Assembly: GCA_015232935.1 (NCBI GenBank)
Contig: JADFYT010000001.1
Coordinates: 1 to 62,816, forward strand
DNA: 62,816 nt
Direction of reading: 5' to 3'
Origin: Desulfamplus sp.
GTDB taxonomy: Bacteria; Desulfobacterota; Desulfobacteria; Desulfobacterales; Desulfobacteraceae
The notes beneath the pieces were generated by a model. The model made no database searches and was not told the origin of the DNA. It was given only the letters and a program-made list of their open reading frames with translations. The translations under genes were made by a program, and so were the position numbers. Position 1 is the stretch's first letter. Each line of letters opens with the position of its first letter. Below are positions 1-52,612 of the stretch, piece by piece.

Positions 1-73
1 ACTCAAATCATAATTATTTGATATTATTATCATATTAAACTATAGATGCAGGTAAAAACTTTAGCACTGGTAC
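1..73 (-). mobile_element. Terminus of an IS4/IS701-like element extending beyond the window; truncates the IS110 transposase
   Basis: AAAAACTTTAGCACTGGTA (about 54-72) resembles AAAAACTTGAACATCGAGTA that closes the DDE fragment at about 1063-1082. The IS110 ORF stops abruptly at this point. Confidence 0.5.
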
Positions 74-286
74 TTAAATACCGGTGCTTTCCATTATAAC
101 CAACTCAATGTCATGACCTTTTAGCCAACGACCAAGTTGACGCCGGTGTTTTCTGAATGTCCCGAACTCACGAGTCTCTTTTTGGACCGTGCCATCTGCC
201 TGTTCCAACAATACCGTTGCCACTATGATCATCTTATGAATATCGAGACCTGCACAACGTTTGACAATAGGCTCTAATTCCGACAT
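74..286 (-). pseudogene. IS110-family transposase/recombinase, N-terminal fragment (DEDD RuvC-like domain)
   Basis: CAGLDIHK and VIMESTGI motifs typical of the IS110 N-terminus; stop exactly where YWKP is expected; AGGAGG RBS upstream. Confidence 0.9.
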
Positions 287-324: not shown

Positions 325-520
325 ATCGCAGGCAGGAGGAATTTTCGGAATATCTATACGTTCTCTATACAAACGCAAGCCATTTTACCGTGCGTAAAAT
401 ATGCAAAATTTGCATACGAAACAATCGGGGGTACGAACCGAAAATTTTAGTTCAGTTTAGGTCACAGGGTTATAACCACCATAAATTAACTCGAACACTC
501 ATCACCCACCTGCGATGGCA
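325..520 (-). ncRNA. Candidate IS110 bridge RNA
   Basis: Lies in the IS110 non-coding end just downstream of a TATAAT on the minus strand. Nested inverted repeats ATCGCAGG 325-332/CCTGCGAT 509-516 and AATTTTCGG 340-348/CCGAAAATT 438-446, plus internal hairpins. Confidence 0.55.
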
Positions 521-582
521 CATTATAATCACCTTTCAAACTTTTTCATCCTCGGGGGTGGCCGAAAAACGGCCATGAGCGT

Positions 583-1038
583 TTAGTTGCCACTGATTTG
601 TGCTGGCAGACAATTGATATTATCCAGGCATACTCTTTGAGATGGCTTGTAGAGGTTTTCTTTGAAGACTGGAAGCTTTATGAGGGATGGGGGCAAGAGG
701 CCAGACAATTTGACGAAGAGGGATCAAGCCGAAGCCTGATTCTGAGTCTATTGATAGACCATTGCCTTCTCCTTCACCCTGAGCAAACGACCTGCATAGA
801 GAACAAACAACCCGTGTCTACCGTGGGAAGCCTGCAACGAATGGCTCAGATGGATGTTTTGATGGACTGTATTAAATCTTTGCTGCAAGAACAGGATCCA
901 GGCGAGAAGCTTAAAGAAATGGGGAGAGTCATAAAAGATGTTTTTCGCCTTATGCCATCTCGAAAACATATGAGTGGAAGATTATTGGGTAGATTGGAAC
1001 CGACACCTTCTCTTTCACACAAATATTGTACTTGTTAA
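583..1038 (+). pseudogene. IS4/IS701-like DDE transposase, C-terminal fragment
   Basis: YSLRWLVEVFFEDWK is a Y-x2-R-x3-E-x6-K signature. No N-terminus; interrupted by the IS110; IR-like end at about 1063-1082. Confidence 0.8.
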
Positions 1039-1610: not shown

Positions 1611-3278
1611 ATGAATTTGATCAGCCCATTAAATTCAGCCAGGTCATGCTTTTCAGAACTGCCATCAGCCCCGGATGGATCACTTGCCCTGACTCTGTTA
1701 CGGGTATTCGCCATTTTTGCAGTAATGAGCCTTGTAACGGCAGGCAGTGCATCAGGTCTTACCCAGGAATCCTTTGATGTTAAAAACCCGAAAAATCAGG
1801 AGATCAACAAGAAGTGTATAACCTGCCACCTTAAAGAGAACAAATCGTTAGTCAAACAGTGGGAAGCATCTGCACATGCCGCAGCAAAAGAGGGACAGGT
1901 TGGATGCTACAACTGCCATGCGGCAGATCCGGCAGATGAGACAGGTTATCAGCATGAAGGTGCATTTATAAAAGCCATACTCTCACCAAATGACTGTGCC
2001 AAATGCCATGAGCCGGAAGCCAAAGAGATGGCAATCTCCCACCACGCTACAGCAGGAGAGATTACGGCATCACTTGATAACATGCTTGCAGAGGTGATCG
2101 GCGGCATGCCGGACAACAAGGCCAACATGCACAGCGGCTGCTGGCAGTGTCACGGTTCCATTGTAACCCTTAAACGGGACAAGGATGGAAAAACATTAAG
2201 ATCAAAAACAGACGCACCCCAGATGGACCACAACACCTTTCCAAACTCTGGCATCGGACGAATCAATCCGGATGGATCAAAGGGAGCCTGCAATGCCTGC
2301 CATCCCAAGCACTCATTCAGGGCAAGTGCGGGAAGGCAGCCTGAGAACTGCGGCAAATGCCATCTTGGACCGGATCATCCCCAAAAAGAGATATATGAAG
2401 AGTCAAAACACGGCATTGCCTATTTTACCGCTGACAAGAATTCAGGCCCGGAAGGGATGAACATCATGAAGGACGGCTCCTGGGTTCTTGGTGATGATTA
2501 CAATGCAGCCCCTACCTGTTCAACATGCCACATGGGTTCATATGTCAAACTTAACGGTGCTGTTGCAAAAAACAGCCACAATGTAGGCGACAGACTCTCC
2601 TGGAACCTTAGAGCCCCTGTATCCTCAAAACTCAACAGGGTCACCTTTACTGACGGAACTGTCACGGATGTTCCGGGAGATATCCCGCCAAGAGCTGGAC
2701 AAAAAATCACTTCAAAGTCATATGCAAGAGAGGGAGACAAGCTCAACAAGATCATGTCAGAAAAAACAATCGAAAAAGTTGTCTCCTGGGAAGAGAGAAG
2801 GCTGACCATGCAGGAGGTATGCAAGTCATGTCACGGCATCAACCATGTAAGGGATTTCTACAGCCAGTTTGATGATCTTGTAAATCTTTACAACGACAAG
2901 TTTGCAAAACCAGGAACCGAGCTTATCAACATGCTTACCAAAGATGGCATACTTCAAAACAGCGGTTTCCAGCACAAACTTGGCTACACATGGTTTGAGG
3001 TGTGGCATCATGAGGGAAGAAGAGCCAGAATGGCCGCTGCCATGCATGCTCCTGACTATACACACTGGCACGGCATGTATGAAGTATCACGCAATTTCTA
3101 TCATGAATTTTTACCAGAAGTCCAGGAACTTGCCGACCATGCGGGCCAGGGAGAAAAATACAAGAAATATATAGCGGAACTGCTTGCGAAACCAGAACAT
3201 TTATGGATAAAAACCGGTGGAAGCGAAGAGACAATGAGGCTAATTCAGGAAGAACGCAAATTACGCTATAACCAATAG
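1611..3278 (+). CDS. Octaheme cytochrome c, hydroxylamine oxidoreductase (HAO) family
   Basis: Eight CxxCH motifs (CITCH, CYNCH, CAKCH, CWQCH, CNACH, CGKCH, CSTCH, CKSCH); HLGPDHPQKEIYEESKHG and WHHEGRRAR...PDYTHWHG; N-terminal hydrophobic signal. Confidence 0.9.
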   Translation: MNLISPLNSARSCFSELPSAPDGSLALTLLRVFAIFAVMSLVTAGSASGLTQESFDVKNPKNQEINKKCITCHLKENKSLVKQWEASAHAAAKEGQVGCYNCHAADPADETGYQHEGAFIKAILSPNDCAKCHEPEAKEMAISHHATAGEITASLDNMLAEVIGGMPDNKANMHSGCWQCHGSIVTLKRDKDGKTLRSKTDAPQMDHNTFPNSGIGRINPDGSKGACNACHPKHSFRASAGRQPENCGKCHLGPDHPQKEIYEESKHGIAYFTADKNSGPEGMNIMKDGSWVLGDDYNAAPTCSTCHMGSYVKLNGAVAKNSHNVGDRLSWNLRAPVSSKLNRVTFTDGTVTDVPGDIPPRAGQKITSKSYAREGDKLNKIMSEKTIEKVVSWEERRLTMQEVCKSCHGINHVRDFYSQFDDLVNLYNDKFAKPGTELINMLTKDGILQNSGFQHKLGYTWFEVWHHEGRRARMAAAMHAPDYTHWHGMYEVSRNFYHEFLPEVQELADHAGQGEKYKKYIAELLAKPEHLWIKTGGSEETMRLIQEERKLRYNQ

Positions 3279-5824: not shown

Positions 5825-5954
5825 ACCTCCTGTGCTATTCACTGTTATTCAGTGCAATCAAGGAGCACAATCCAGTTTTGCGGCAATTATAATGATGTTA
5901 TGCAATCATGGACAATCTTCTATGGATACTCTTCAAGGGACAATCTTCTTTACC

Positions 5955-6728
5955 ATGAAAATATATTCTGCTTTTAATAATTGGGGATGGACATATAACG
6001 GCCATGAACGCCTGACAAGATATTTGTTGTACTTTATATGTGCTGTGAACCTTGCTGTCCCGGCTCATGCAGACAACAGCACTATTTCAGCCACCAGTGC
6101 TGAAAACATAGCATCTGAAACTTATCCAGAAGCTGAGACTTGTCCAGAAGCTGAATTTTTTAAAAAGGTGGAATCTCTTAAAATCGGGTGGCAGGGATAT
6201 ATTCTTGGTAAAGAGCTCAACAGCTCACAAAAGGAGACTGCCCGAAGGAACAGGATTACCGCCTCGACCAGCAAAGACGCCCCCAAAGATTCAACTACCC
6301 GCAAAGACGCAACTGTAACCCCTTCAGTGACCGGGACATATAAATTCAGAGACAGGGAGCTCAACATTGTAGCGGACAGCAAAACAGACCGTGTGCTGAT
6401 TATATTTCAAACTCTTGAACGTGCGTATCAACAAGATGTCAGGGATATGATCGGATCTCTGGTGACAGTATTTCATGATCCGACCCTGTCCGCCCATGAC
6501 AAAATAGTCTATTGGGCATATGGAGACAAAGGAAAATACAGCAGTGCTCAATTTAAAACGGCAAAAGCCAGACAGGAACCTCTATCCATTATCGCCACGG
6601 TCAAGCTGCAAAGTGAGATTCCCATTATGGAGATTCCCATTATGCAGAAGGATCAGGAAAAAGCATCAGGCAAAGCGTACTACATTATCAGCTCGGAACT
6701 GCTTCTCAAGCAGCTTCATCTGGAGTAA
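5955..6728 (+). CDS. Hypothetical exported protein
   Basis: Long ORF with signal-like segment (LLYFICAVNLAVPAHA); start uncertain (frame open from 5832). Confidence 0.6.
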   Translation: MKIYSAFNNWGWTYNGHERLTRYLLYFICAVNLAVPAHADNSTISATSAENIASETYPEAETCPEAEFFKKVESLKIGWQGYILGKELNSSQKETARRNRITASTSKDAPKDSTTRKDATVTPSVTGTYKFRDRELNIVADSKTDRVLIIFQTLERAYQQDVRDMIGSLVTVFHDPTLSAHDKIVYWAYGDKGKYSSAQFKTAKARQEPLSIIATVKLQSEIPIMEIPIMQKDQEKASGKAYYIISSELLLKQLHLE

Positions 6729-26228: not shown

Positions 26229-26365
26229 AGGTTTTACTATGAAAACGGGCATGCTTCAAAAACGGGCATGCTTCATTTGACGGATTACACTTTCTTCAGG
26301 CTTATCCCTAATTTTTAGGGGTTTCCCTCAAAAAAAATGCAAACTACTTTTGAGGTGATATGAAG

Positions 26366-26430
26366 GATGCCTGAAAATGTATTTTTACTTTCAAGATTCG
26401 GGGCGGCCACACAGTAACGATGAATGTTTA
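26366..26430 (-). mobile_element. About 65-bp miniature IS110-like element, type I (degenerate)
   Basis: Minus strand TAAACATTCATCGTTACTGTGTGGCCGCCCCGAATCTTGAAA...TTTCA. Confidence 0.6.
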
Positions 26431-31454: not shown

Positions 31455-31519
31455 TAAACACTCATGGCTCTTGTGTGGCCACACCGAATCATGAAAACCG
31501 GAATGAGTTTTCATGGCAG
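31455..31519 (+). mobile_element. 65-bp miniature IS110-like element, type I
   Basis: TAAACACTCATGGCTCTTGTGTGGCCACACCGAATCATGAAAAC...GTTTTCATGG; closely resembles the IS110 end at 543-585. Confidence 0.72.
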
Positions 31520-45047: not shown

Positions 45048-45159
45048 AACATAGAGCATTTCCGGAAGCTTTAGAGCATTCCCGGAAGCTTAAAAGTTTG
45101 TAACGAACCCTTTCAGGAATGAGTCTGACAATAAAATACCCGTTTTAAAATCCAAATAC

Positions 45160-45217
45160 GCCGTCCTTCAAGGTCGGTGTATTCTTACATGAGCAAGTTA
45201 TTTAAAACCGGTTCCTT
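45160..45217 (-). repeat. About 58-bp dispersed repeat (copy of 14872-14929)
   Basis: Reverse complement aligns with 14872-14929. Confidence 0.8.
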
Positions 45218-47812: not shown

Positions 47813-48031
47813 ATGAAACACGATGTCACCATTTTCAAACCATACCCATTTAAGTTGGGTCAAAAAATAAGGATAGATGGATCAGGAAGAAACGGAGACT
47901 GGGAGGTTATTGATATAGGTGAAAATAAAATAACCATAAAATGCCCCATATCCCATAAAGAGCTAAAATGTGATAAATTCTGCTGTTTTGTTGAAGAAAA
48001 AAACAATGAGGATTGGCCAAAACTTGCATGA
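47813..48031 (+). CDS. Small hypothetical protein
   Basis: AAGGAG RBS; PYPF..GQKIRI...GDWEV...CP. Confidence 0.7.
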   Translation: MKHDVTIFKPYPFKLGQKIRIDGSGRNGDWEVIDIGENKITIKCPISHKELKCDKFCCFVEEKNNEDWPKLA

Positions 48032-48103
48032 CTAACGGAATCAGACCACCCTATGCATGAAATCCATGACATATTTTCACGGTAAACAGGAGGTAGATAC
48101 CTT

Positions 48104-51133: not shown

Positions 51134-51284
51134 ACGTGTAGCCTTTTTACCATTAAAAGGAGTCCTGATTTTCGTGGCTCGGGATAGTCACACAACGGCC
51201 ATGAAGGTTTAGGTTTAATTGCTGTAGGGGGTGTAGGTACGCCCGCCCTTAATACAGTCAATGAAATGCCAAAAGGCTACACTC
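51134..51284. repeat. 89-bp REP-MITE copy C interrupted by a miniature IS110-like element
   Basis: Perfect 12-bp TIR GTGTAGCCTTTT (51136-51147)/AAAAGGCTACAC (51271-51282); 151 bp = 89 + 62. Confidence 0.8.
51147..51211 (-). mobile_element. 65-bp miniature IS110-like element, type I
   Basis: Minus strand TAAACCTTCATGGCCGTTGTGTGACTATCCCGAGCCACGAAAA...TTTTAATGGTAA. Confidence 0.78.
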
Positions 51285-52506: not shown

Positions 52507-52571
52507 TTACCATAAAAATGCGTTATGATTTTCATGGTTCGGGGTGACAACCCAATGGCAATGAATCTTTA
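52507..52571 (-). mobile_element. 65-bp miniature IS110-like element, type I
   Basis: Minus strand TAAAGATTCATTGCCATTGGGTTGTCACCCCGAACCATGAAAAT...ATTTTTATGGTAA. Confidence 0.75.
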
Positions 52572-52585
52572 TTTATTATATCAGG

Positions 52586-52612
52586 AGGGGGCGTATCAAC
52601 GCTACGCCCCTG
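52586..52612. repeat. REP-like hairpin
   Basis: GGGGCGTA-TCAACGC-TACGCCCC, same stem as in the 89-bp elements; lies between convergent genes. Confidence 0.7.

Follow-up and report, generated by a model that had tools for sequence, protein, structure and literature searches.

Two predicted donor guides on one DNA strand suggest a folded single-strand donor in a group of IS110 elements with numerous gene-less copies in Desulfamplus

The stretch of Desulfamplus sp. DNA analyzed here (62,816 nt, contig JADFYT010000001.1; the window) carries near its start the remains of an IS110 element on the minus strand (Table 1). The window belongs to an assembly of 2.88 Mb that is 64% complete (G000). The recombinase gene is broken at codon 70 by the end of another repeated element (window 1-76), and the remaining 70 amino acids match the NCBIfam IS110 model with an E-value of 1e-7, which for this fragment is under the cut-off. 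The interrupting element has 14 further matches in G000 (E ≤ 1e-15), many of them at contig ends, and its junctions fall after TTA. An intact homolog from Desulfamplus magnetovallimortis (L002) combines a left end of ~320 nt, a recombinase of 409 aa and a right end of ~95 nt; its protein scores 260 bits against NF033542 (cut-off 140), and PF01548 together with PF02371 was present in all 120 relatives among the matches listed. An intact recombinase of the IS110 family was not found in the incomplete G000 assembly, and the window copy is without an enzyme of its own.

Upstream of the recombinase codons lies a non-coding region of 300 nt. The left boundary of the element is fixed by the homolog junction TAT/TTA GTT GCT of an IS4-like transposase gene; the first element position is 582, directly after the core. 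The interrupted transposase gene is part of nested transposon remains at 583-1479, in which the IS4/IS701-like fragment is followed by an IS1182-like C-terminus (1045-1479). Further downstream, 1611-3278 encodes a multiheme cytochrome c of 555 aa that weakly resembles hydrazine dehydrogenase/hydroxylamine oxidoreductase-type families (E 8e-17, a score well short of the cut-off).

Table 1. Features of the truncated IS110 element and positions of the mini copies in the window.
Feature	Position	Strand	Basis or remark
IS110 recombinase, first 70 codons	77..286	-	89% to intact L002
Predicted bridge RNA	328..513	-	closing stem 505-513 with 328-338; fold z -3.2
Variable hairpin containing GCGTTT (371-376), not a guide	357..377	-
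Predicted donor loop, 3' strand	383..391	-	ACGGT-AA identical to right end and core, then 2 handshake-position bases
Predicted donor loop, 5' strand (putative second donor guide)	423..432	-	covariation tests
Predicted target loop, 3' strand	455..463	-	identical to left flank and core (GACCT-AA), then AC, the first two element bases
Predicted target loop, 5' strand	483..491	-	reverse complement of core and right flank, predicts AA-ATTAA; host-gene codons
Predicted -10 box TATAAT	522..527	-	consensus scan, 10/12
Outer arm ATGAAAA	543..549	-	its complement, the TTTTCA arm, starts 5 nt from the right end; also predicted -35 box
Internal left-end segment	550..559	-	8/10 identical to donor loop 5' strand; covariation tests
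Inner hairpin of the left end	559..575	-	starts 7 nt after the core; Watson-Crick count and fold
AA core, left junction	583..584	-	conservation at the two ends across 273 minis; homolog cores; IS621 guide register
IS4/IS701-like transposase fragment, insertion site of the element	583..1038	+
Mini copy	5949..6010	-
Mini copy	26371..26430	-	right end decayed
Mini copy	31455..31518	+
Mini copy	48020..48086	+	ACGG type
End-only mini, 62 bp	51147..51210	-	64 with both cores
End-only mini, 62 bp	52507..52570	-

Positions 392-371 of the minus strand, within the non-coding region, read CACGGTAAAATGGCTTGCGTTT, just as a first sequence-only reading of the window had reported. This stretch is part of the predicted bridge RNA of the truncated element, which, judged from its sequence, belongs to the IS110 bridge family. 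The consensus fold of 10 close homologs contains a target loop and a donor module with closing stem and inner hairpin, with double changes in 18 of 36 pairs; an Rfam search of the window returned no match. The matches that are identical to the DNA sit on the 3' strands of both loops (GT-GACCT-AA-AC for the target, GC-ACGGT-AA-AA for the donor) and follow the register of the IS621 template (G-N, five bases, core, two bases). This register implies a core of 2 nt, AA in the window element and AG in most relatives (AG 18 and AA 7 of 25 homolog cores), which on the other strand corresponds to TT and CT, the cores of IS621. The short core is repeated at both ends without any other duplication in the minis described below, in L002 and at empty sites, and joined ends were seen only as tandem junctions. 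From the identity matches on the 3' strands and the register it follows that the recombination sites are inverted relative to the RNA.

In 18 of 23 elements, the left junction, consisting of flank, core and the first two bases of the element, is found again in the element's own RNA on the same strand, compared with 51 of 506 cross pairs; the longest word lay in another place in the window and in L002, and the anchor of L039 was wrong. For the 5' strand of the target loop, the own score was 5.4 versus 4.6 for cross pairs (25 of 60 loci), a difference that is confounded by the core and by the RNA-based choice of right ends. For the same reason, 22 exact matches of this strand among 25 were not counted as a statistic. 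Altogether, the structured RNA has, by these comparisons, loops that covary with target and donor.

The right end TTTCACGGTAA, which the sequence-only reading had predicted for the missing part of the element, is present exactly as predicted in contig C46 of G000 and in the intact homolog. In C46, the 3' part of a recombinase gene of the same family, be it from the window's own copy or from another, is followed by TTTTTCACGGTAAA; the right end of L002 reads TTTTTCACGGTAAAA, and the end TTTTTCACGGTAA is common to L002 and the C46 gene part. The guide ACGGTAA (385-391) matches this right end together with the core. Both minis singled out earlier (51147 and 52507) indeed end in ATGGTAAAA on the minus strand, matching ACGGTAAAA at 8 of 9 bases. 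Near-full recombinase matches came from 42 loci, of which 32 were distinct; a long upstream region together with a candidate right end was available for 24 of these. In this set, an element's own RNA repeated a word of at least 7 bases located after the T-run of the right end, on the same strand, in 16 of 24 elements, compared with 53 of 552 cross pairs, and none of 20,000 permutations reached the observed value. In addition, the guide variants ACGG and ATGG track the right ends in L002, L038, L040, L041, L043 and L080. The number of matches expected by chance in an RNA of the same length and composition is 0.014 for ACGGTAA, 0.0007 for CACGGTAAA and 0.069 for GCGTTT; the caution that the matches might be fortuitous is thereby lifted for ACGGTAA, and the GCGTTT match is not clearly beyond chance. 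Taken together, covariation and chance counts indicate that ACGGTAA is a real donor guide for the right end.

The same reading had proposed GCGTTT as a second, left donor guide. GCGTTT is the reverse complement of AAACGC at 584-579, and this perfect complement of 6 nt in the window, together with TAAA at both ends of 116 of 273 minis, is what speaks for a loop of the IS621 type in which ACGGTAA would be the 5' and GCGTTT the 3' guide, with TAA as the core between them. In all eight close homologs, however, the aligned position matches the element's own left end at only 0-3 of 6 bases; L038, the left end of which begins as in the window element, is among them with 1 of 6. Furthermore, the RNA shows no enrichment of the left junction's reverse complement (1 of 23 own and 81 of 506 cross pairs, p 0.73), only 8 nt lie between the ACGGTAA and GCGTTT matches, which leaves no room for the stem-loop of an IS621 loop, and homologs with an AG core lack TAA. 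The minis keep only the first two bases after the core (A 95%, C 84%), and the positions that GCGTTT would read vary. GCGTTT itself is one arm of a variable hairpin. The core proposed there, TAA, gave way to AA on the basis of mini ends and homolog cores; the empty sites alone fit both. This arrangement is thus highly improbable. Another register, in which GATTGTTT pairs with the start of the left end, is good in the window and was discarded, as it is broken by L040 and L081 and by an overlapped stem.

The second donor guide probably lies 32 nt upstream, at 423-432, where the RNA matches a segment inside the left end instead of its start. The putative partner consists of the 10-11 bases preceding the ATGAAAA arm. 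In a distant set of 11 elements (44-72% protein identity to the nearest; L063 was left out as a near-duplicate), the own match to the internal segment scored 8.09 versus 5.99 for cross pairs, a value reached in 0 of 100,000 permutations, and a close set of 10 elements gave p 1.4e-4. The canonical pairing of 423-432 with the reverse complement of the left-end start failed (p 0.98 and 0.33). With fixed rules, the held-out loci confirmed the internal match (own 7.94, cross 5.93, p 1e-5) for the 9 of 21 loci that could be scored; of the other 12, one was a duplicate, nine had no arm by the rule and two had no RNA anchor. When guide and segment were swapped between sisters, for which 30 elements were paired by protein identity to remove kinship and pairs with identical RNA words were skipped, the own combination was better in 14 of 15 pairs, worse in none and tied in one. 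Among seven far relatives (28-39% identity; an ISPpu9-like, most distant group), the identity of guide and segment is clear in two.

This identity could also have a cause other than DNA pairing, namely a protein-bound motif in both RNA and DNA, antisense RNA pairing or repeated gene conversion, in which case the left end would be recognised solely through the 2-nt handshake and protein contacts on a palindrome. The ACC start of the segment, which is conserved in all elements, would suit this explanation, as would the antisense RNAs made by ISPpu9 and ISPpu10 and the segment mismatches tolerated in mini copies (mean score ~7/10). It is, on the other hand, at odds with the variable positions, which track element by element in 14 of 15 sister pairs, and with the location of the RNA stretch at the loop position of the left donor guide of IS621. 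As the internal segment lies upstream of the predicted promoter, it would not be in the sense RNA either, and we regard the explanation as improbable. Pairing of the RNA with the internal segment, by comparison, is supported by the covariation results, and we hold it with good confidence. Both strands of the donor loop are identical to the top strand of the element, and both would then pair with the bottom strand.

The mini elements share both ends with the IS110 element, as had been proposed. An HMM search of G000 yielded 325 hits, 276 of them near full length. Each mini joins the first ~45 bases of the left end through a short spacer to the last 12 bases of the right end, and 81 of 193 have a length of exactly 64 bases including both cores. 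They keep exactly the core, the 7 nt, the stem, the segment and the arm complementary to the right end, with AA at both ends in 198 of 273 copies. Using a strict pattern, minis were detected in 6 of 14 genomes of the genus and in none of the reversed controls. The median identity to the nearest neighbour is 84%, and one mini is found in 13 identical copies at 13 different flanks. REP-like GC-rich hairpins adjoin both 51147 and 52507 (window 51225-51250 and 52584-52612); the hairpin pattern occurs 34 times in G000 and beside a mini in 1 of 193 cases.

Empty sites were sought for 193 minis and were clean for two copies (10 and 16 hits, no gap at the junction) and weaker for three, among them 51147; tandem or self matches made up the majority of the 84 spanning alignments. 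For 51147, the orthologous site in G010 did not provide a clean empty site, the intergenic region there being 140 nt shorter and not alignable. The empty sites belonging to minis on C30 and C442, with 10 and 16 paralogous hits, revealed two other dispersed repeat families in the window (26326-26367 and 45109-45185). Taken together, the minis appear to be non-autonomous IS110 derivatives that possess both ends of the autonomous element and no gene, and identical copies at different sites together with empty sites argue for their movement. Fourteen mini pairs are arranged head-to-tail and share a core. Since minis and full elements in such arrays share one core, a complete donor junction is rebuilt in the chromosome; arrays of this kind are located at L102-L135 in G001, a relative of a different species, and at G000:C46 575, L039, L138 and L153.

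Flanking sequences of the minis follow the host. One mini subfamily occurs in both G000 (35 matches) and G001 (47 matches) at ~95%, up to 96% identity, for example at G000:C193:1179-1246 (L165); as a side reading, this may reflect recent spread or transfer of a gene-less 64-bp element. The target loops predict GACCT-AA-ATTAA for the window RNA and TGAGT-AA-AAAAA for the RNA of G001. Within this single subfamily, C at -2 was found in 17 of 22 copies in G000 versus 0 of 27 in G001, G at -2 in 0 of 22 versus 12 of 27, and T at +2 in 13 of 25 versus 2 of 30. Only free flanks were compared, with 27 copies read in G000 and 38 of 40 fetched (of the 47 matches) in G001. The comparison replaces an earlier, weak test in G001, where G at -2 was present in 7 of 19 copies, three of which were decayed neighbouring ends. 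As the flanks match the target loop of each host, the minis very likely moved with the resident bridge RNA. The flanks of one mini, G000:C69:4920 (L167), whose left end starts like that of the window element, read GACCT-AA-ATT and agree with the predicted target of the window RNA over 10 bases. The mini classes of G000 differ in their flanks, with C at -2 in 38 of 54 copies with ACGG-type ends and in 9 of 72 with ATGG-type ends. The ATGG-type minis suggest a second element with an AUGG guide that is absent from the G000 assembly; L038, L039, L044 and L055 carry such a guide.

Several IS110 members target REP repeats, and the minis are abundant and mostly located outside long frames (11 of 193 inside). 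Based on this, the 62-bp repeats might be REP-like targets of the host with an IS110 inserted in the middle, and not derivatives of the ends. We rejected this possibility and give it hardly any credence, because the target-loop guides match the flanks outside the repeat-like ends, the empty sites show precise insertion at the core and the flanks follow the resident target loop.

The left end that the minis retain has a constant order: core, ~7 nt, stem, a segment of 10-11 nt and the arm, which has its complement in the right end, 5 bases from the terminus. Across 30 elements, 119 of the 150 first-five positions of the inner stem are Watson-Crick pairs although the stem sequences differ, and the segment has a length of 10 or 11 in all 30 (10-12 were allowed). 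The outer arms, a pair of 6-7 nt at a distance of 5 nt from the right and ~34 nt from the left terminus, are still complementary despite changed sequence in all three distant elements read; the left arm doubles as the predicted -35 box. In the outer stem, wobble pairs (G-T versus A-C) favour the bottom strand (76 versus 31 for the top strand). The first five inner pairs are even (bottom 40, top 47), wobble near the loop favours the top strand, and full elements are slightly on the top side (9 versus 5). Folded as 62-nt circles, the minis form dumbbells that beat shuffled sequences in 60 of 81 cases, with z -4.5 for the bottom and -2.9 for the top strand of the mini with 13 identical copies; 51147 and 52507 show no advantage over shuffles (z +0.5 to -1.2). 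When junctions were computed and folded to minimum energy, a clean open bubble did not result, as L002 pairs part of it and the window/C46 junction has a competing stem.

Right and left ends joined on the bottom strand could be the starting state of insertion. Through the inner stem, the seven bases adjoining the core would come to face the complement of the internal segment, and with the outer arms closing the structure, a ready-made bubble would take the place of a two-stranded donor. Both donor guides could then pair with the bottom strand folded back through the left-end hairpin, and a single strand exchange with a duplex target, followed by resolution through replication, would be enough for insertion. 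A mini of 62 nt would be a single-stranded dumbbell of the same shape that borrows recombinase and RNA in trans. Two preprints, as far as their accessible text goes, fit a folded donor: IS621 excises a single-stranded circle (10.64898/2026.08.31.748434), and CazIS110 inserts mainly one strand (10.1101/2025.10.25.684509). Against it counts that ISPpu9, the ends of which have the same layout, still formed circles after point mutation of the inverted repeat in its left end (PMC12288879, accessible text; a qualitative PCR that addresses excision only). The mixed wobble counts, the competing pairings in the junction folds, the poor folding of 51147 and 52507, the second role of the left arm as predicted -35 box, the 12 unscored held-out loci and the clear guide identity in just two of the seven far relatives weigh against it as well.

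All covariation results would fit equally well if the RNA paired with the segment on duplex DNA, either with the helix opened at two places ~25 bp apart or by capture of a cruciform of the supercoiled circle, and with no free single-stranded donor. A duplex circle of 62 bp is very strained, yet 13 identical minis are found at 13 different flanks; the head-to-tail arrays, with their 14 pairs sharing a core, could give larger circles. The inner stem without clear strand bias and the ISPpu9 mutant that still circularises also agree with a duplex donor, which we nevertheless consider unlikely. With some reservation, we lean towards a folded single DNA strand as the donor substrate.

That both predicted donor guides match one strand suggests that this group likely inserts a folded single strand, and that ~270 gene-less copies were likely spread in this way. 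Members of this group were seen in Desulfobacterota-type genomes, Bacillota, Actinomycetota and Betaproteobacteria. For the more general proposal we see about even chances: a widespread IS110 subfamily would use a self-folded, attC-like single-strand donor whose second strand is provided by fold-back, the excised single-stranded circle could be inserted directly, and the 62-nt dumbbells would represent a minimal transposon. According to preprints, IS110 elements leave as single-stranded circles, yet insertion with an IS621-type bridge RNA depends on both strands of the donor; if true, a donor loop that reads one strand, combined with a fold-back partner, would close this gap for a large subfamily. 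A further gain would be a bridge recombinase that accepts cargo in single-stranded form, flanked by ends of ~45 and 12 bases. The minis, for their part, are a natural record of target choice, with the same 62-bp element exposed to different guides in different hosts.

The new part is the same-strand donor guide and not the two matches originally claimed. We found no report of a same-strand or fold-back donor guide in the literature searched, with most subscription papers and figures lying outside it; Extended Data Fig. 10c of Durrant and Fig. S12 of COMPASS (deviating RNAs) could show the flipped order. Such a guide is absent from the text covered of PMC13626964, 10.1101/2025.05.14.653916, 10.64898/2026.03.19.712850 and 10.64898/2026.10.21.760802. 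Covariation windows centred on the core, of 25 nt in the last of these, would likely have missed a guide for an internal segment. Gene-less IS110 passengers, by contrast, are already known from the accessible text on MITEPpu9 (PMC12288879) and on tandem units (10.64898/2026.08.14.744561).

In its available text, the report on ISPpu9 of Pseudomonas putida (PMC12288879) describes an AG core and a left box of 43 nt that contains an inverted repeat as well as an arm whose complement is in the right box, as seen here, and does not map the guides. MITEPpu9 likewise has both ends and no recombinase gene and is moved in trans; according to the same text, it carries the ssr9 RNA gene and is present in 8 copies, whereas the minis consist of ends only (62 bp) and reach ~270 copies in a genome that is 64% complete. 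The tandem non-coding units beside IS110 (10.64898/2026.08.14.744561, accessible part) are also arranged head-to-tail with donor-like boundaries, but they adjoin the transposase and mostly have one donor end, in contrast to the minis, which are dispersed genome-wide and have both.

With the seekRNA of the IS1111 group (PMC11187229, text available in part), the predicted RNA shares the arrangement of the target loop, in which the complement of the top strand precedes the match to the bottom strand, and, following Durrant, donor bases in a multiloop. The outer arms, at 5 nt from the right but ~34 nt from the left terminus, may correspond to the subterminal inverted arms of that group. The IS1111 RNA is located downstream of a transposase of 330-350 aa, and here it lies upstream of one of 409 aa. 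A long downstream non-coding region and a transposase of 330-350 aa were accordingly not found in L002, with its left end of ~320 nt and right end of ~95 nt. In the accessible text, Siddiquee et al. (PMC11187229) describe the flipped order for IS1111-type elements and not for their one IS110-type element with an upstream RNA.

In IS621, as described in the accessible parts of PMC11208160 and PMC11208158, the RNA is encoded in the left end, with the target loop followed by the donor module, and the core has 2 nt, all of which applies to the window element as well. Each loop repeats the top-strand sequence on its 5' strand and has a G-N linker, 7 complementary bases and 2 handshake bases on its 3' strand; the linker, the 7-nt guide and the handshake bases on the 3' strand recur in our predictions. 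The donor guides of IS621, however, pair with opposite strands next to the core. The window group has the flipped order, in which the identity guides follow G-N on the 3' strand. Its 5' donor guide corresponds to a segment that lies ~24-33 nt into the left end, and the strand it matches is the one matched by the other guide. Donor guides on opposite strands were not detected here, and the same-strand internal match reached p<1e-5. The recombinase of ~409 aa is related to that of IS621 only at E 2e-12, and close relatives of the window element have an extra hairpin, which turns the donor loop into a multiloop.

Integron attC sites and the ends of IS200/IS605 also serve as substrates in the form of a folded single strand, with one strand exchange that is resolved by replication. 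Their enzymes are tyrosine or HUH enzymes that act without a guide RNA. The window group would instead combine RNA-DNA pairing with what is presumably, by its catalytic residues, a DEDD enzyme, so that the resemblance to attC and IS200/IS605 is one of working principle only.
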